DNA of 64,000 nt from Escherichia coli (GTDB taxonomy: Bacteria; Pseudomonadota; Gammaproteobacteria; Enterobacterales; Enterobacteriaceae). Positions 1,710-57,243 of this stretch are shown here, in pieces. Under the pieces are notes generated by a model. That model saw nothing but the letters and a program-made list of their open reading frames with translations, did no database searches and was not told the DNA's origin. Made by a program: the position numbers and the translations under genes. Numbering within the stretch: the stretch's first letter is position 1; the number at the start of each line of letters is the position of its first letter. Location of the stretch: assembly GCF_022846255.1 (NCBI RefSeq), contig NZ_AP025682.1; one strand, given 5' to 3'.

Positions 1710-2609
1710 TTAACGCAATAATGGACAATCTGGTGGTAATCGACAACGCAACGCCGCCGGAAGTATTTCAATATGGAAGTTTTGCCCACTCAACGGTTCG
1801 CCATCAAGATTAAAAGTGATTTCGTGTGGGGCTTGTATATCAAACCACGACGAAGCGCCTTCGATAATATTCGGGTTATCTTCGTCAGATTTTAATGTTG
1901 ATACGAGAGCCGGAAGAATTTCATCGCCGGTAAAAATGCGCAGTTGCAGCAAGCCATCGTTAATTAACGCGTTCGGGCACAATTGCTGACCGCCACCGGC
2001 CTGACGCCCGTTACCAATACCAATGACCAGGGCGTCACCTTGCCAGTGAAAGTTTTCACCGCGGATTTCACAACGGTCCGGTTGCAGAGTATCCATGCGC
2101 ATTAAGCCATGAATGATGTAAGAGACGCCACCCAGCGCGGCTTTTAATTTTTCCGGCGTTTCTGTGGTAATACGCGTCCCAAATCCGCCTGTCGCCATAT
2201 TAATAAAACAGGTTTGTTTGTTGACCTGCGCCATATCTATCGCAATGGCGTTACCGGCAATTGCCAGTTTCAGCGCCTTATCCAGTGCCTCAGGAATCCC
2301 TACACTGGTGGCAAAATCATTGGCGGTTCCTAATGGCAAAATTCCCAGCGCGGGTATGTCATCCCCCTCACACTGAATCAACGCCGTAGAAACTTCATTA
2401 ATGGTGCCATCGCCACCACCGGCAATCACCGTTGCGACGCCCAACTTCCGGGCCTCCTCTACATATCGTGCGGCATCGCCTTTCTCCCAGGTGACCCGCA
2501 CATGGATCGTCATTCCTTCCTCACGCAACAGCATAATTGCTTCGCGCAAGGGTAAATTGTCAGTACTTTTGCCATTAAGAATCAGTAAGCTGGCGGGAAA
2601 TTCTGCCAT
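1710..2609 (-). CDS. yegS: lipid kinase YegS (diacylglycerol-kinase-like catalytic domain)
   Basis: 299-aa ORF starting [15 protein letters not shown] with a GGDGT motif; matches my recollection of E. coli YegS. Confidence 0.92.
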
Positions 2610-3023
2610 GATCGTATGTGCCTTTATGATTGGTCTGTAGATAGTGTAGAGCAGAAAAGAAAAGGTAGAGTCAGAACAGGATGAAAGTCGGAGGATAAAA
2701 AGTCAGTTCAAGTATGGAAGATTCAGTGGTTACCACCAGGAGCTTGCAATGGGGACAGCGAATACTAACGGCAGCCACCGATAAATTTCAAAAAAGAGCA
2801 TATACCTAATATTCAACTAAACAGTGGCATCTTCAATATACTATTAAAAATATATTAACCCCCCCATGGGGTTACCCGGAAGGGCATCCGTGTATGTAAT
2901 TCCTACTTATGTAGGAAATGTTGTACAGAACATTTATTATAATCCTATTCAAATATAATAATCATGCCATTATTATATTTAAACACCAGAGCGTGTCGTT
3001 GGTATTTAATGGGGGAAGGTAAG

Positions 3024-3341
3024 ATGAAAAAGATAGCTGCTATATCATTAATTAGTGTTTTTCTTATGTCTGGTTGTGCTGTGCATAATGATGAGACAAG
3101 TATCGGTAAATTTGGCCTTGCATATAAAAGTAATATTCAGCGTAAACTCGATAACCAATACTACACCGAAGCCGAAGCTTCTTTAGCCAGGGGCAGAATT
3201 TCTGGTGCAGAAAATATAGTAAAAAATGATGCAGCTCATTTCTGTGTTACTCAGGGAAAAAAAATGCAGATAGTTGACCTGAAGACAGAAGGTGCAGGAT
3301 TACATGGCGTCGCTCGTCTGACATTCAAATGTGGAGAGTGA
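3024..3341 (+). CDS. yegR: small lipoprotein YegR
   Basis: Start ATG at 3024 preceded by a ggaagg RBS; signal peptide with lipobox (FLMSGC); 105 aa, consistent with YegR. The supplied ORF (2964) has a 20-aa N-terminal extension that I reject. Confidence 0.8.
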   Translation: MKKIAAISLISVFLMSGCAVHNDETSIGKFGLAYKSNIQRKLDNQYYTEAEASLARGRISGAENIVKNDAAHFCVTQGKKMQIVDLKTEGAGLHGVARLTFKCGE

Positions 3342-3498
3342 GAATATTTTTTGGTAAGCGTCAAACATGCGCGTTCTGGCTGTGCGTAACCGGAACCTGT
3401 GCGAGCACGATGCCAATAAGTGAAAGGCATCGTGCTATGAGGGGAGATTCTATCGATGTGGTCAATGGAAGACGGTTACCAGGATACGGCTTATGCAT

Positions 3499-3585
3499 AA
3501 AAAATAAGCCCGTGTAAGGGAGATTACACAGGCTAAGGAGGTGGTTCCTGGTACAGCTAGCATTTTATGGGTTATGTTTTTCAGC
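3499..3585 (-). ncRNA. cyaR: CyaR (RyeE) Hfq-dependent sRNA
   Basis: The reverse complement of 3499-3585 matches the 87-nt CyaR sequence as I recall it (GCTGAAAAACATAACCCATAAAATGCTAGCTGTACCAGGAACCACCTCCTTAGCC...CGGGCTTATTTTTT), including its intrinsic terminator, and lies immediately 3' of yegQ as expected. Confidence 0.85.
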
Positions 3586-3619
3586 GAAACGGATGATAAC
3601 CTTAATAAATGCAGCTGTA

Positions 3620-3669: not shown

Positions 3670-5031
3670 TCACTTACCGTGGGGGTTACGCGTGGTTTCC
3701 CCGGAGAAATTACGCATCAGCAGCGCGTAATTTAGCTCAAGATCCTGCGGCACCGGGATCCACACAGTATAACCATCGCCCGGTGCGACCGGCATTGCTT
3801 CGCCTTTGGCGTTTTCCATATGCTCAAGGGTAAAGTTAATGTTCCCTTGCGGCGTCATCAGCTCAAGGCTGTCGCCAACGGAGAATTTATTTTTCACCGC
3901 TACCGCCGCGAGGTCGCCCTTGCGCTCACCGGTAAACTCACCAACAAACTGCTGGCGGTCAGAAACTGAATAACCGTATTCGTAGTTCTGATAATCGTCG
4001 TGAGTATGACGACGCAGGAAACCTTCGGTATAGCCACGATGCGCCAGACCTTCCAGAGTTTCCAGCAGGCTGGTATCGAACGGTTTGCCCGCAGCGGCAT
4101 CATCGATAGCTTTACGGTAAACCTGCGCGGTGCGTGCGCAATAGTAGAAAGATTTGGTACGACCTTCGATTTTCAGCGAATGCACGCCCATTTTGGTCAG
4201 GCGTTCTACATGGGCGATGGCGCGCAGATCTTTCGAGTTCATGATGTAAGTGCCGTGCTCATCTTCAAACGCGGTCATATACTCGCCCGGACGCTGGGCT
4301 TCTTCGATCATAAACACTTTGTCGGTTGGCGCGCCGATACCCAGCGTCGGCTCAACATTTTGCACCGGAATCGGCTCGTACTTGTGTACGATGTTGCCAA
4401 CGTCATCTTCTTTCCCTTCCTGGACGTTGTACTCCCAGCGGCAGGCGTTGGTGCAGGTACCCTGGTTCGGGTCGCGCTTGTTGATATAGCCAGAGAGCAG
4501 GCAGCGACCGGAGTAGGCCATGCACAGCGCGCCGTGAACGAAGATCTCGATCTCCATATCCGGCACCTGATTGCGGATCTCTTCAATCTCTTCCAGCGAC
4601 AGCTCGCGAGAGAGGATCACGCGGGTCAGTCCCATTTGCTGCCAGAATTTCACCGTCGCCCAGTTCACGGCGTTAGCCTGTACCGAGAGATGGATCGGCA
4701 TTTCAGGGAAGTGCTCGCGCACCAGCATAATCAGCCCCGGATCGGACATAATCAGCGCATCCGGCCCCATTTCCACCACCGGTTTCAGGTCACGGATAAA
4801 GGTTTTCAGCTTGGCGTTGTGCGGTGCAATGTTGACCACAACATAAAACTTTTTCCCCAGCGCGTGGGCTTCATTGATGCCGAGCTGAAGATTTTCGTGG
4901 TTGAATTCGTTGTTGCGCACACGCAGGGAGTAACGCGGCTGGCCCGCATAAACAGCATCTGCGCCATAAGCGAAAGCGTAACGCATATTTTTCAGCGTTC
5001 CCGCCGGGGAAAGGAGTTCCGGTTTAAACAT
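3670..5031 (-). CDS. yegQ: peptidase U32-family protein YegQ (TrhP, tRNA ho5U34 hydroxylation)
   Basis: 453-aa ORF with U32 family signatures (MFKPELLSPAG...collagenase-like); length and position as expected for yegQ. Confidence 0.92.
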   Translation of the reverse strand: MFKPELLSPAGTLKNMRYAFAYGADAVYAGQPRYSLRVRNNEFNHENLQLGINEAHALGKKFYVVVNIAPHNAKLKTFIRDLKPVVEMGPDALIMSDPGLIMLVREHFPEMPIHLSVQANAVNWATVKFWQQMGLTRVILSRELSLEEIEEIRNQVPDMEIEIFVHGALCMAYSGRCLLSGYINKRDPNQGTCTNACRWEYNVQEGKEDDVGNIVHKYEPIPVQNVEPTLGIGAPTDKVFMIEEAQRPGEYMTAFEDEHGTYIMNSKDLRAIAHVERLTKMGVHSLKIEGRTKSFYYCARTAQVYRKAIDDAAAGKPFDTSLLETLEGLAHRGYTEGFLRRHTHDDYQNYEYGYSVSDRQQFVGEFTGERKGDLAAVAVKNKFSVGDSLELMTPQGNINFTLEHMENAKGEAMPVAPGDGYTVWIPVPQDLELNYALLMRNFSGETTRNPHGK

Positions 5032-5133
5032 AATTCTCTCGTTCTGATGACAGGTCAGATCCGCTTCACCTGATGAAGCGGTTAGGGGAGTGCCCCCACT
5101 TTAAGGGCGGGCATTGTAGCGCAATCGGCGGGT

Positions 5134-5430
5134 TTAGCTCCAGTGTAAATGTCTGGAGGCGTCCTGGTTTTGGTTAAGGATACGAATGACGATAATTTCC
5201 TCTGGTGATTGCAGGAAATAAATTACGTGGCGTTCAAAAGGAAGAACAAAAATACCTTCGCCTAATTCAGGTCTGGGTGTACCTATATTATTGTTACTCA
5301 GAATCTGGAGAACGTCTGAAAGATGTTCCACATATCTGTCGGCTTGTGGTTCGCCGAAATGGTGATAGCTGTAATACCAGATGCCTTCTAAATCCTCATT
5401 GGCTTTTGGCATGAGTTTTATAGTACGCAC
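5134..5430 (-). CDS. RelE/ParE-superfamily type II toxin (ParE-like)
   Basis: About 92-98 aa; ParE-like segments (EDLEGIWYY..FGEPQADRYVEHL...HVIYFLQSPEEIIVIRIL); directly downstream of, and nearly abutting, an RHH antitoxin ORF. Start is either GTG at 5430 or ATG at 5412. Confidence 0.75.
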   Translation of the reverse strand: MRTIKLMPKANEDLEGIWYYSYHHFGEPQADRYVEHLSDVLQILSNNNIGTPRPELGEGIFVLPFERHVIYFLQSPEEIIVIRILNQNQDASRHLHWS

Positions 5431-5431
5431 A

Positions 5432-5683
5432 TTATTTCCTTATCCCTGCTTTCACCTTCCGTAAAAACGCGTCCTTTTCCCACGGCTGAGCTTCACCACT
5501 ACTCAACCCTTCAGCGAGCATGTCACGTAACGCTTGCAGGCGAGACTCTGCTTGCTTTTCTCGAAGTAAGCGCAGCGACTCACGGATCACTTCGCTTTGG
5601 GTGCGATAGTCGCCGGATTCAATTAAGGACTCGATAAATTCACGCAACTCATCGCCGAGATCAACCGTCATCGTTCTGGCCAT
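5432..5683 (-). CDS. ParD-like (RHH/COG3609) type II antitoxin
   Basis: 83-aa product from ATG at 5683 (MARTMTVDLGDELREFIESLIESGDYRTQSEVIRESLRLLREKQ...); ribbon-helix-helix ParD signature; stop 1 nt before the toxin start. The supplied ORF extends to 5728. Confidence 0.75.
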   Translation of the reverse strand: MARTMTVDLGDELREFIESLIESGDYRTQSEVIRESLRLLREKQAESRLQALRDMLAEGLSSGEAQPWEKDAFLRKVKAGIRK

Positions 5684-5890
5684 TTTACGCCCGCCTGTAA
5701 GTAAAAATCTTACATCAGTGTATTTCATAAACCGGATAGCGTCACGAAAGTATTAGAAGATATTTTGGCATATGAACATGTTCAGGAAGATAAGTATGGG
5801 ATGGTAAACAAAGAAAGCACAACGAGTGCTTGTCAGTGCCCACTATTTTAATGGCGGAGGTTAATCTTAATTATCAATAACTAAGAGTTG

Positions 5891-5929
5891 TTTTGATATA
5901 AAGCCGGACGCCAACAACCCACGCCCGGC
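5891..5929 (-). terminator. putative intrinsic terminator downstream of yegP
   Basis: On the minus strand a GC-rich hairpin (gccgggcg...cgtccggc) followed by TTTATATCAAAA lies immediately 3' of the yegP stop. Confidence 0.5.
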
Positions 5930-5936
5930 ATCGTAA

Positions 5937-6269
5937 TTACGTATTGTCTTTTACCGTCTGACTTGTGCCATTGGCTTTAACGGAGGCAATTCCGGTTTCA
6001 CGAGATTGCGCGGTGGCGTACATCTGGCTGGAGCCGATAATTTGATGATTGGCGGCTTTCAGATTGAAATAGAATTTGCCGTTGCTTGCCGTTTTTTTCT
6101 CATAGCGTTCTTCTTGCGGGCTGTTGCTACGTACCGACGCGATGCCCTTTTCCGCAGAGGCTTTTGAGGTATACAGCTCGCTGGTGAGGATAGTCTCACC
6201 ATTGCCCGCTTTTAGCACAAACCGGAACTGATTATCACTGCTCTTACTGAGTTCAAACCAACCAGCCAT
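5937..6269 (-). CDS. yegP: UPF0339/DUF1508 tandem-repeat small protein YegP
   Basis: 110 aa from ATG at 6269 with a strong RBS (aaggagtcATG); MAGWFELSKSSDNQFRFVLKAGNGE... followed by an internal repeat (KFYFNLKAANHQIIGSSQMY). Confidence 0.85.
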   Translation of the reverse strand: MAGWFELSKSSDNQFRFVLKAGNGETILTSELYTSKASAEKGIASVRSNSPQEERYEKKTASNGKFYFNLKAANHQIIGSSQMYATAQSRETGIASVKANGTSQTVKDNT

Positions 6270-6448: not shown

Positions 6449-7171
6449 TTAAACGATGCGGCAGGCATCGGCTTCCCAGCGGTAACCGACGCCGTAAACG
6501 GCGCGGATAAATGACTGTTCGGCGTCGAGAGATTCCAGCTTGCGGCGCAGGTTTTTAATGTGGCTGTCGATGGTACGGTCAGTTACCACGCGGTAGTCGT
6601 CATAAAGATGGTTCAGCAACTGCTCGCGGGAGAACACTTTTCCTGGTTCATGAGAGAGCGTTTTCAGCAGACGAAATTCTGCAGGCGTCAGGTCAAGCAT
6701 TTTACCGCGCCATGAAGCCTGAAAACGACCTTCGTCGATAATCAACGGGCTTTCAGCATCCTGTTGCTGCAACTCACGCTGCGGTTTGCAACGGCGCAAA
6801 ATGGTTTTGACGCGCGCTACCACTTCCCGTGGGCTGTACGGTTTGCAGATGTAGTCATCTGCGCCAATCTCCAGCCCGAGCAGGCGGTCGATCTCTTCGA
6901 TTTTTGCTGTCACCATCACGATCGGAATGTCAGAAAAACGACGAATCTCCCGACACAACGTCAGGCCATCGGTGCCAGGGAGCATCAGATCCAACAGGAT
7001 CAGATCCGGTGGTGTCTGGCGCACATATGGCAGTACCTGATCGCCGTGGCTGATAAGCGTCGGCGCATAGCTCGCAGCACGCAGATAATCAATGAGTAAC
7101 TGTCCCAGCTTCGGTTCATCTTCCACGATCAAAATACGCGGTGTGTTTTCGTCGATTGGTAACTCGGTCAT
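6449..7171 (-). CDS. baeR: OmpR-family response regulator BaeR
   Basis: 240 aa; receiver domain ([11 protein letters not shown]...[11 protein letters not shown]) plus winged-helix output domain; overlaps the baeS stop. Confidence 0.95.
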
Positions 7172-17669: not shown

Positions 17670-17815
17670 AGCCCCTCCCGAGGAAGGGGCCTTAAATAAG
17701 GAAAGGGTCATGATGAAGTGGATCATCATCGTGGTGCTCTTAGTGATTAGCTACCCAGCATACTAAGACTACCAGGGCGGGGGAAACCCCGCTCTACCCT
17801 CACTCCTGAAAGTAT
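17670..17815 (-). ncRNA. sibA: SibA-like antisense sRNA (type I antitoxin); ends approximate
   Basis: The minus strand carries an intrinsic terminator (aaggcccc-ttcctcggga-ggggctt + TTTTCCGTTT) at about 17675-17704, antisense to and fully overlapping the ibs ORF. The 5' end is not determinable from sequence. Confidence 0.5.
17710..17766 (+). CDS. ibsA: Ibs-family hydrophobic toxic peptide, 18 aa (MMKWIIIVVLLVISYPAY)
   Basis: Translated directly from the sequence; RBS aaggaaagg upstream; characteristic Ibs peptide. Confidence 0.7.
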   Translation: MMKWIIIVVLLVISYPAY

Positions 17816-17994
17816 GCCTTCACGGTCCAATTGTCAATCCGCAGACTTTGCAGTCTGCGATCCTGCCAGCAAATATTCTTTGCGAGTCGTTACGCAATAA
17901 TCACACTTGAAACTATTTTATCCGCAAGTCAGCGATAGACTGCATACAGGGCGAAAGGAGGTAAGCCGAAGATTTCAGCGGGACGCTGAAACGG

Positions 17995-18140
17995 GAAAGC
18001 CCCTCCCGAGGAAGGGGCCTTAAATAAGGAAAGGGTCATGATGAAGCTACTCATCATCGTGGTGCTCTTAGTCATTAGCTGGCCAGCTTACTAAGACTAC
18101 CAGGGCGGGGGAAACCCCGCTCTACCCTCACTCCTGAAAT
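17995..18140 (-). ncRNA. sibB: SibB-like antisense sRNA (type I antitoxin); ends approximate
   Basis: Second copy of the same terminator hairpin on the minus strand at about 17997-18022, antisense to the second ibs ORF. Confidence 0.5.
18038..18094 (+). CDS. ibsB: Ibs-family hydrophobic toxic peptide, 18 aa (MMKLLIIVVLLVISWPAY)
   Basis: Translated directly from the sequence; second repeat unit. Confidence 0.7.
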   Translation: MMKLLIIVVLLVISWPAY

Positions 18141-18311
18141 TATGTCACTCCGCCCTTAGTGTCAATCGACGGCTCTCCGTTCTTGCGAGGCGAATAGCAA
18201 AATTTTCTGCGCCGCCGGGCCTAATTCTGAAAGTTTCTTCGTTTGCTCTTATTTCATTATTGCAATCGGTATGATACCGGACCTCAATAATTCTCTAAGA
18301 AAGGATTTCTT

Positions 18312-33038: not shown

Positions 33039-33077
33039 CAGTGTGTTGGTAGCTAAAAAGCCAGGGGCGGTAGCGTG
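33039..33077 (+). promoter_or_regulatory. JUMPstart element with ops site (GGCGGTAGCGTG at 33066-33077) in the colanic acid operon leader
   Basis: Exact ops consensus GGCGGTAGnnTG preceded by GGTAGC, about 180 bp upstream of wza; the RfaH-dependent anti-termination signal known for cps operons. Confidence 0.75.
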
Positions 33078-47503: not shown

Positions 47504-47603
47504 CCGTTGAATAATCAACCGGATTAATTCTCCGGTAAATAACGAAAAAACAAAATTGGCCGTTTCGGTCAGGGCCAACTATTGCCTGAAAAAGGGTAAC
47601 GAC

Positions 47604-57204: not shown

Positions 57205-57243
57205 CAGTGCTCTGGTAGCTGTAAAGCCAGGGGCGGTAGCGTG
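57205..57243 (+). promoter_or_regulatory. JUMPstart element with ops site (GGCGGTAGCGTG at 57232-57243) in the O-antigen operon leader
   Basis: Exact ops consensus preceded by GGTAGC, about 75 bp upstream of rmlB; the same 30-nt core (agccaggggcggtagcgtg) as the cps leader copy. Confidence 0.75.

Follow-up and report, generated by a model that had tools for sequence, protein, structure and literature searches.

A ParD/ParE-type toxin-antitoxin cassette at the yegP-yegQ/trhP locus of Escherichia coli

The parDE gene pair and its control region

The window analysed here is a 64,000-nucleotide stretch of Escherichia coli DNA, in which two small, adjacent and co-directional genes lie on the minus strand between yegP (5937-6269) and the tRNA-modification gene yegQ/trhP (3670-5031), both also on the minus strand. 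The first, parD (5432-5683), encodes a predicted antitoxin of 83 aa (MARTMTVDLG...), in which an N-terminal ribbon-helix-helix (RHH) part would contact DNA and a C-terminal one the toxin, and the second, parE (5134-5430), encodes a predicted toxin of 98 aa that starts at a GTG (5430-5428). The arrangement, parD before parE, is that of a type II toxin-antitoxin (TA) operon. A first-pass annotation of this DNA, made from its letters, had described a ParD/ParE-like pair between yegP and yegQ in antitoxin-first order and separated by one nucleotide; the two minus-strand ORFs are indeed found there, and parD ends with its stop codon at 5434-5432, after which base 5431 alone precedes the parE GTG. 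An AAGGA Shine-Dalgarno sequence can be read about 7-8 nt 5' of this GTG and, given the 1-nt gap, parE is probably translationally coupled to parD. RefSeq already annotates the pair as ParD and RelE/ParE. The plus strand of the region shows one promoter-like site against 2.3 expected from shuffled sequences, that is, nothing above chance, and it also holds an antisense ORF of 69 aa.

The family assignments proposed at first pass are borne out by profile searches, with the toxin matching ParE_toxin (PF05016, 7.7e-14; see below) and the antitoxin matching ParD_antitoxin (PF03693, 8.6e-19) as well as TIGR02606 (4e-25, 87.6 bits for a curated cut-off of 46.2). Among solved structures ParD is closest to PrpA (7ycs_D, 1.9e-27), and it also matches the ParD chains 7b22, 3kxe_C and 8c24_C. 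Its N-terminal part is recognised as RHH_1 (0.0049), aligns residue by residue to the RHH domain of PrpA (7ycv, 8e-18) and weakly matches NikR in the N-terminal region with which the latter binds DNA. Homology to the toxin-bound ParD chains of 7ycs, 3kxe, 8c24 and 7r5a suggests that ParD would bind and neutralise its cognate ParE.

Concerning the start of parD, the listed ORF (5432-5728) is 98 aa long, as is the RefSeq/PGAP model, and the PF03693 match begins at residue 16 of this long ORF; counted from Met16 (ATG 5683-5681), the family-matching part has 83 aa, the length expected from the first-pass description of an RHH ParD-like antitoxin. The additional 15 codons (5684-5728, minus strand) hold the predicted -10 element and operator described below, and the upstream ATG is out of frame with Met16 through indels in E. 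whittamii, in strain 88COLEC and in Pseudocitrobacter. In 88COLEC such an indel, which breaks the frame between the upstream ATG and Met16, accounts for the 'frameshifted' flag that PGAP gives to parD, even though its 83-aa ParD is 100% identical, while the Pseudocitrobacter gene was independently called at 83 aa. Hence, the antitoxin as annotated, with 98 aa, probably begins 15 codons too early; these codons are presumably not translated, and the annotated start is flagged here as a likely error.

Upstream of parD, the predicted parDE promoter (5717-5745, minus strand) consists of a -35 GTGACG (5745-5740), a 17-nt spacer and a -10 TACACT (5722-5717). It scores under the 9-of-12 threshold of the consensus scan, and a -10 of the form TAnACT together with a -35-like hexamer is conserved in an alignment of five cassettes. 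An inverted repeat, TGTAAG-N7-CTTACA (5697-5715, minus strand), overlaps the predicted transcription start and is kept in E. coli, E. whittamii, Pseudocitrobacter and the IncF copies of E. coli and Salmonella, while the neighbouring sequence diverges. This conservation across all cassette types points to the repeat as the likely ParD operator. A perfect 12-bp palindrome, TGAACATGTTCA (5773-5784), also lies in the upstream region of the cassette; it is kept between E. coli and E. whittamii but not in Pseudocitrobacter and the plasmid copies, and was ranked lower as an operator candidate because it is not conserved outside Escherichia. Still further 5' in the cassette, upstream of the parDE promoter, the consensus scan finds a terminator-like hairpin followed by a T-run (5815-5831, minus strand).

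Boundaries, distribution and history of the cassette

Alignment against K-12 BW25113 and the empty sites of outgroups delimits a cassette of 780 bp (5123-5902, minus strand), located where K-12 has about 15-21 bp of intergenic spacer (BLAST and alignment, BW25113). The first-pass annotation considered K-12 to have no ParDE module at this position, and this is the case: BW25113 and DH5alpha both lack the pair and have a yegP-yegQ intergenic region of 146 bp. On the yegP side, the cassette starts directly after the stem of the intrinsic terminator hairpin of yegP (5903-5929, minus strand), identified by the terminator scan and a multi-genus alignment. A repeat search revealed neither terminal inverted repeats nor flanking direct repeats or a target-site duplication at the cassette; its junctions show only the microhomologies TTTA and GCGC, and it contains no mobility genes. 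The possibility that the K-12 empty site is a deletion scar was rejected, since its junction, GCTTTACC ... CACAGCGCTACAAT, also occurs in E. albertii, Kluyvera and Lelliottia. In the empty site of Citrobacter the T-run differs slightly, and the TTTACC and CACAGCGCTACAAT elements are retained behind it. Since E. albertii, Citrobacter, Kluyvera and Lelliottia have it as well, we take the K-12-type empty site as ancestral.

The cassette is present in 1845 of 5426 complete E. coli genomes, with one copy each, always chromosomal and always at this locus. It is thus a strain-variable insertion in a conserved backbone, as had been suggested, and not a core component of K-12 and essentially all E. coli. 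A 5.1-kb island has been written over the cassette in 298 genomes. Three states, namely empty, ParDE and island, occur at this hotspot. ATCC 8739, a carrier, and K-12, a non-carrier, have nearly identical flanks (pS 0.003-0.028). An apparent fourth allele in HS-01 was discarded as the product of a homopolymer-ridden, low-quality assembly. Beyond E. coli, the pair is intact in E. whittamii, two cryptic Escherichia lineages retain remnants with internal deletions, and Pseudocitrobacter has a diverged copy with the same yegQ-side junction. It should be noted that the contig scan with YegP had its best match in E. albertii (94%) and nothing at 95-100%, and the absence of E. coli sensu stricto and E. 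fergusonii from that scan is uninformative.

The hotspot character of the locus, with another island in 298 genomes, is compatible with a role as an anti-phage abortive-infection module or as a stabiliser of the neighbouring variable region, roles of a sort suggested for TA systems on chromosomes (review PMC7167474). ParE and ParD, however, match no PADLOC defence model, and the cassette sits alone between core genes with no adjoining mobile element to stabilise; we consider these roles quite unlikely. As for the island, PADLOC returned no match for three of its four proteins analysed and a marginal one for the fourth (4.8e-4).

Comparison with E. whittamii yields 1 non-synonymous and 10 synonymous differences for parD (pN/pS about 0.03) and 7 and 11, respectively, for parE (pN/pS about 0.17), values that reveal purifying selection on the two genes alike. 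The two cryptic-lineage remnants, like the island allele, have lost parD jointly with the 5' portion of parE, and no allele missing the antitoxin alone occurs among the alleles seen. Chromosomal TA loci frequently decay, and one may ask if the present pair is itself a decaying or attenuated remnant, with a non-toxic ParE and a ParD that acts as a DNA-binding regulator or is passive baggage. Decay at this very site in the two cryptic lineages and in a B2-type island allele, an IncF plasmid homologue whose parE has two stop codons and whose parD is frameshifted, and the larger amount of amino-acid change in ParE than in ParD (pN 0.030 vs 0.005) all speak in its favour. Against it, both ORFs are intact in every listed sampled carrier, where the sole 'frameshift' is the annotation artefact of 88COLEC, the low pN/pS ratios reveal continuing constraint on both genes, and the start codon, the Shine-Dalgarno sequence and the operator are all conserved. 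On balance such a remnant is unlikely.

The cassette is old and not a recent strain-specific insertion, as evidenced by the E. whittamii copy, the cryptic-lineage remnants and the diverged Pseudocitrobacter copy. Its synonymous divergence, however, does not track that of the flanks, being lower against E. whittamii (pS 0.18 vs 0.30-0.52 in the flanks) and higher against Pseudocitrobacter (0.76-0.79 vs 0.43-0.57), and its history is therefore not one of simple vertical descent. In particular, vertical inheritance since before the split of the Escherichia species finds no clean support in the E. whittamii comparison. Within Escherichia the cassette appears to persist and spread as its conserved flanks, yegP and yegQ, undergo homologous recombination, which would result in the presence/absence polymorphism seen at the three-state hotspot.

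Functional interpretation and relation to known systems

The ParE-like toxin of about 92-98 aa proposed at first pass corresponds to the 98-aa ORF, whose residues 4-90 align to model positions 1-88 of 89 in PF05016 and whose nearest solved structures are ParE toxins. Full-length alignments are obtained with PrpT (7ycs_A, 6.2e-13), 8c24_A, 3kxe_A and 7r5a_A, and the PDB matches at E <= 0.05 amount to five chains, all of ParE type (7ycs, 8c24, 3kxe, 7r5a and 6x0a), four of them at E <= 0.001; the sole further match is an unrelated chain at E = 0.91. Characterised ParE toxins are matched at modest identity (E about 1e-7 to 1e-13), and the NCBIfam search of the toxin gave no family at E <= 0.01. 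Both PF05016 and the RefSeq name span the entire RelE/ParE superfamily, which leaves room for a RelE-like toxin, i.e. a ribosome-dependent mRNA endonuclease that would inhibit translation rather than gyrase, and the papers on PrpT do not mention gyrase, its target not being established there (PMC7848731, PMC9731233). We judge this very unlikely: besides the purely ParE-type set of structural matches, with no RelE, YoeB, HigB or YafQ chain up to E = 1, the partner is a ParD (PF03693) and not a RelB or YefM, and PrpT, which is toxic in E. coli and neutralised by PrpA (PMC7848731), causes filamentation there, a DNA-damage-type phenotype.

The explanation that best accounts for the locus, and which we hold with good confidence, is a chromosomal type II TA operon of the ParE (PF05016)/ParD (PF03693) kind, presumably working by the mechanism typical of the family. 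ParD dimers would bind the TGTAAG-N7-CTTACA repeat through their N-terminal RHH domain and, with this repeat lying across the predicted start of transcription from a weak promoter (GTGACG-17 nt-TACACT), such binding would repress the operon. The C-terminal half of ParD would wrap around ParE and neutralise it. Should Lon/Clp-type proteases degrade ParD faster than it is replenished, the ParE set free would poison DNA gyrase, and the cell would suffer DNA damage, form filaments and stop growing. It is by homology that toxicity, an action on gyrase, autoregulation and a dependence on proteases are all attributed to this pair.

Gyrase inhibition has been reported for some ParE family members besides Vibrio cholerae ParE2. 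For VcParE2 it has been shown, with Trp25 contacting gyrase and being fully replaceable only by Tyr (bioRxiv 10.1101/2025.07.24.666505); Phe25 of the present ParE aligns with this aromatic position, which counts as the one indirect sign of gyrase targeting and, Phe not being Tyr, also as a point against it. The same architecture is found in Caulobacter ParD1-ParE1 and Pseudoalteromonas PrpA-PrpT. The chromosomal pairs of Caulobacter crescentus (ParD1-ParE1, 3KXE), 8C24 (ParD1-ParE1) and V. cholerae (ParD2-ParE2, 7R5A/7B22) belong to the same fold class and give full-length toxin alignments at E about 2e-7, though with low sequence identity to the pair described here.

The best solved-structure match for both proteins is PrpT/PrpA, from plasmid pMBL6842 of Pseudoalteromonas rubra (PDB 7YCS/7YCU), which shares the PF05016 and PF03693 pairing and the antitoxin-first order, and in which the RHH β-strand segment (RTMTVD) is nearly identical. 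There, however, the genes are plasmid-borne and overlap by 8 bases, and PrpA binds the iterons of the origin to control copy number (PMC7848731, PMC9731233), whereas the pair at yegP-yegQ is chromosomal, has a 1-nt gap and adjoins no replicon; it does not fit a copy-number controller of the PrpT/PrpA type. The published PrpA motif, TTTG(T/A)AAT, has no exact match upstream of parD, only matches with one mismatch. Among the homologues, only those on plasmids adjoin RepB, and the IncF ones also lie beside a tyrosine recombinase. More distantly, RK2 ParDE and the plasmid ParDE-I (YacAB, IncI/IncF; PMC6614396) have in common with the present pair the toxin superfamily and the addiction/stress-tolerance logic, but RK2 ParD belongs to another antitoxin family, PF09386 (PMC7848731), ParE-I shares only about 15% identity with the classical ParE of RK2 and Caulobacter (PMC6614396), and YacAB-type ParDE-I is distinct from the IncF homologues of the cassette.

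These IncF homologues raise the question of whether the main benefit of the operon could be anti-addiction, with chromosomal ParD neutralising an IncF-type plasmid ParE so that the host can shed plasmids without post-segregational killing. In tblastn comparisons chromosomal ParD is about 90-92% identical to Klebsiella/IncF ParD, its toxin-binding half included, whereas ParE is only 62-67% identical; the operator repeat is common to the plasmid copies, and a degenerate copy is carried by the E. coli IncF plasmid pJJ1887-5. Nevertheless, the divergence of ParE may have broken cross-recognition, and constraint on DNA binding and folding explains the conservation of ParD equally well, and anti-addiction is unlikely to be the main benefit.

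As a TA operon, the gene pair is already known, with both proteins named by RefSeq in >1,800 complete genomes, and the biology of ParDE systems is amply documented. No study of parDE at this locus came up in literature searches by RefSeq accession or by yegP/yegQ together with ParE, and ParDE goes unmentioned in a paper on the chromosomal TA systems of a hybrid E. coli strain. The closest parallels in terms of genomic setting are ccdO157 in folA-apaH and Salmonella parDE in relA-mazG (PMC7167474), which are likewise small, strain-variable, core-intergenic and free of mobility genes, at sites open to other elements; the integration route of such cassettes is called unknown in the same review (PMC7167474). 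Different from these, the yegP-yegQ cassette abuts the putative -10 of the downstream gene and has the same junction in another genus. It offers a clean natural example of a mobility-gene-free TA cassette occupying a core intergenic site, and its value for comparison lies in the exact boundaries, ancestral empty sites in several genera, decayed remnants, an overwritten allele and near-identical flanks.

The cassette and the putative yegQ/trhP promoter

What is new here, although small, is that the cassette lies inside the likely promoter of yegQ/trhP. K-12, E. albertii, Citrobacter, Kluyvera and Lelliottia all keep a TTTACC-17/18 nt-TACAAT arrangement around spacers of variable sequence, and on the basis of this conservation it is assigned as the putative yegQ promoter; in K-12, 200 bp upstream of trhP are enough for complementation (PMC6599085). 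In the carrier the -10 TACAAT (5113-5118, minus strand) is retained 4 nt from the cassette end, and the TTTACC -35 is lost, its position being now occupied by GGAGCT/TGGAGC from the 3' end of parE. As the cassette ends 4 nt from the -10, which five genera conserve, and has removed the conserved -35, it appears to sit within the ancestral yegQ promoter. The first-pass annotation had placed the pair just upstream of the yegQ promoter region; the cassette seems to do more than precede the putative promoter, in that it splits the conserved -35 from the -10.

Downstream of this junction, the yegQ/trhP leader (5032-5112, minus strand) contains three conserved hairpins according to RNAalifold, with three pairs showing compensatory changes in 10 sequences from 5 genera. 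The terminator scan detected no minus-strand intrinsic terminator between the parE stop and the yegQ start (5032-5133). Because the -35 has been replaced and the cassette has no terminator of its own, yegQ is probably read, at least partly, through from the parDE promoter in carriers. A stronger version, to which we give little credence, is that TrhP, a tRNA wobble-uridine hydroxylase, is now under the ParD-repressed, stress-derepressible parDE promoter, which would make the cassette more than a selfish passenger and couple the ho5U/cmo5U modification of tRNA to the state of the TA system in a third of E. coli. If so, the shared junction in Pseudocitrobacter would represent an old, maintained arrangement. 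A possibility that lends itself to testing is that yegQ/trhP expression is unequal between carrier and non-carrier strains.

The ParD/ParE pair and its relatives

On the minus strand of this E. coli chromosome the gene order is baeS, baeR (6449-7171), yegP (5937-6269), two small ORFs, yegQ/trhP (3670-5031) and the sRNA cyaR (3502-3587). The first small ORF (5432-5728) encodes the antitoxin and the second (5134-5430) the toxin, with a single base, 5431, between the antitoxin stop (5434-5432) and the toxin GTG start (5430-5428), which is preceded by an AAGGA Shine-Dalgarno sequence. The antitoxin-first pair with a one-base gap described by the first-pass annotation is therefore read directly from the sequence, and the ParE/ParD assignment proposed there is confirmed by profile searches: the parE product (98 aa) matches Pfam ParE_toxin (PF05016, 7.7e-14) over nearly the entire model, and the antitoxin matches ParD_antitoxin (PF03693, 8.6e-19) and NCBIfam TIGR02606 (87.6 bits, the curated cut-off being 46.2).

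In a comparison with solved structures the toxin gives full-length alignments with PrpT (7ycs_A, 6.2e-13), ParE1 (8c24_A), Caulobacter ParE1 (3kxe_A) and Vibrio cholerae ParE2 (7r5a_A), and no RelE, YoeB, HigB or YafQ chain appears among its matches even to E ≤ 1. For the antitoxin, the hits are PrpA (1.9e-27) and, from the same complexes, the ParD partners of these toxins. The study of PrpTA from Pseudoalteromonas rubra is the source of PDB entries 7YCU, 7YCV and 7YCW (PMC9731233); PrpT is toxic in E. coli, with filamentation, and is neutralised by PrpA, in work that also sets ParE/PF03693 pairs, the kind found here, apart from the ParE/PF09386 pair of RK2 (PMC7848731). ParDE-I of IncI/IncF plasmids (PMC6614396) belongs to a different, far more distant family. 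The pair is an uncharacterised but already annotated ParE/ParD(PF03693) type II toxin-antitoxin member, named 'ParD family antitoxin' and 'RelE/ParE family toxin' in RefSeq. The initial reading as a whole is correct and its finding real, though ordinary.

Literature searches found no experimental work on this pair. Compared with E. whittamii, parD shows a single non-synonymous difference and 10 synonymous ones (pN/pS ~0.03), parE 7 and 11 respectively (pN/pS ~0.17), and hence both genes are under purifying selection, which speaks indirectly for their being functional. We infer that parE is toxic and that its target is gyrase. Phe25 of the toxin aligns with Trp25 of VcParE2, reported as a key gyrase-contact residue located on the α-hairpin (bioRxiv 10.1101/2025.07.24.666505).

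As many as 880 plasmids, the majority of them conjugative, carry distant DNA matches of 68-71% identity. Intact pairs are found on a Klebsiella virulence plasmid and on a Salmonella plasmid, while the unannotated pair of pJJ1887-5 from E. coli JJ1887 (L089:2501-3098) consists of pseudogenes, parE having two stops and parD a frameshift. These IncF-type pairs adjoin RepB and a tyrosine recombinase in both pJJ1887-5 and the Salmonella plasmid, the neighbours in the latter being a Rep3-family replication gene, the recombinase and a TraX-family gene. Comparison of the chromosomal pair with these plasmid pairs gives ~90-92% identity for ParD but only 62-67% for ParE; the ParD identity leaves room for chromosomal/plasmid antitoxin cross-talk, which is a speculative possibility.

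Predicted parDE promoter and antitoxin start

When the sequences preceding parD in E. coli, E. whittamii, Pseudocitrobacter and the IncF plasmid copies of E. coli and Salmonella are aligned, three features prove to be kept in all five cassettes amid diverging surroundings: a −35-like hexamer GTGACG (5745-5740), a −10 element TAnACT, here TACACT (5722-5717), and an inverted repeat TGTAAG-N7-CTTACA (5697-5715). A consensus promoter scan did not call the GTGACG/TACACT promoter. The repeat would lie over the transcription start and is a putative ParD operator, at which parDE may be autoregulated.

The RefSeq/PGAP antitoxin model has 98 aa and starts at 5728. The PF03693 match starts at residue 16 of this ORF, indels between the two ATGs put the upstream one out of frame in E. 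whittamii, strain 88COLEC and Pseudocitrobacter, and for Pseudocitrobacter an 83-aa protein was called independently, all of which backs the earlier estimate of about 83 aa. A further argument is that the ATG at 5728 falls between the predicted −35 and −10. Translation of the antitoxin most probably begins at 5683, yielding 83 aa, and the RefSeq model (WP_001305156 / WP_001307279) is probably 15 codons too long at its N-terminus (5684-5728). As a consequence, PGAP calls intact genes 'frameshifted' in strains such as 88COLEC, whose 83-aa product is identical to the one described here.

The cassette site in E. coli and other genera

Alignment to K-12 BW25113 places the insertion boundaries, left open by the first-pass annotation, at 5123-5902, where a 780-bp cassette stands in place of ~15-21 bp of the 146-bp intergenic region. 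A repeat search found no direct or inverted repeats flanking it, and the junctions share only the short strings TTTA and GCGC. The pair is accessory and absent from K-12, as had been supposed: 1,845 of 5,426 complete E. coli genomes carry the cassette, always as a single chromosomal copy and in no case on a plasmid (the two plasmid-collection records containing it are chromosome-sized, 1.4 and 4.8 Mb), and at the yegP-yegQ locus in all carriers examined. This conforms to the known pattern of toxin-antitoxin cassettes in core intergenic regions (PMC7167474). The allele studied here is in the minority (188 genomes match it at ≥99% identity); the majority of carriers differ from it by ~2.6%. ATCC 8739 has the cassette and K-12 lacks it, yet their flanking genes are near-identical at synonymous sites (pS of 0.003 for yegQ, 0.012 for baeR and 0.028 for yegP), which points to alleles being exchanged by homologous recombination through the flanks, and the cassette may have spread in this way. 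In E. coli HS-01 (L006:1874-2755) the cassette region is rich in long homopolymer runs and aligns partially, which suggests that assembly or base calling failed locally and that this is not a real allele.

In 298 of the 5,426 genomes, for example the B2-type A0 34/86 (L088:1407-6733, equivalent to 5153-5840 here), a 5.1-kb island replaces the middle of the cassette, so that the parE 3' end survives as 30 nt and the cassette 5' end as ~62 nt. Its four genes encode one PcfJ-domain, one DUF1266, one DUF4034 and one hypothetical protein; a PADLOC search gave no convincing match for them. Together with the empty and ParDE sites, this allele makes the locus a hotspot with three states.

Species-representative genomes were scanned with YegP and the resulting loci compared. 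E. whittamii has an intact pair with the same junctions as E. coli. The divergent lineages Escherichia sp. E1V33 and SCPM-O-B-8794 (labelled E. coli) carry different internally deleted remnants, in both of which the cassette 5' end and the 3' portion of parE survive. All degraded alleles have jointly lost parD and the 5' part of parE, as expected if loss of the antitoxin only is not tolerated. Empty sites structured like that of K-12 in E. albertii, Citrobacter, Kluyvera and Lelliottia indicate that the empty state is ancestral and the cassette an insertion. Pseudocitrobacter (L093:3627-4400, and also L092) has a diverged pair (ParD 92%, ParE 79% identical) directly after baeR, with yegP absent, at the same yegQ-side junction, hence one site is occupied across genera. 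Synonymous divergence of the cassette is below that of the flanks against E. whittamii (0.18 versus 0.30-0.52) and above it against Pseudocitrobacter (0.76-0.79 versus 0.43-0.57), which implies a history of more than vertical descent.

The putative yegQ/trhP promoter and neighbouring features

Right after the yegP terminator, the five genera whose sites are empty share TTTACC and TACAAT, separated by 17-18 nt of variable sequence; in K-12, 200 bp upstream of trhP are enough for complementation (PMC6599085). Here TACAAT, the putative yegQ −10 (5118-5113), is retained 4 nt from the cassette end, and the last codons of parE (GGAGCT or TGGAGC) now occupy the −35 position in place of TTTACC. The cassette had been located just upstream of the yegQ promoter region, which is an understatement, since it appears, on the basis of conservation rather than a mapped transcription start, to split the promoter. 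A scan found no intrinsic terminator between the parE stop and the yegQ start; read-through from parDE into yegQ is plausible, and the cassette may affect yegQ transcription.

Three hairpins of the yegQ/trhP leader (5032-5112, minus strand) are conserved across five enterobacterial genera, the middle one with three compensatory base-pair changes, and the leader matches no Rfam family. A transcriptional pause sequence in yegQ was reported in a paper measuring Rho-dependent terminators.

At 2600-3600, cyaR (3502-3587) is followed by a yegR-like ORF and yegS, without the P2-like remnant of K-12 (ogrK, late control D fragment), and this spot in strain Z142-7 holds genes of a P2-type prophage (tail protein, late control D and ogrK), which makes it a second variable site, one gene from the ParDE site. 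Two SIB RNA copies of the sibA/sibB type (17695-18165), antitoxins of Ibs type I toxins, adjoin the mdtABCD-baeSR region and form a further toxin-antitoxin locus. Two JUMPstart elements and one algC RNA motif (33039-33077, 57205-57243 and 47550-47599) fit the colanic-acid and O-antigen clusters that lie further along the window.
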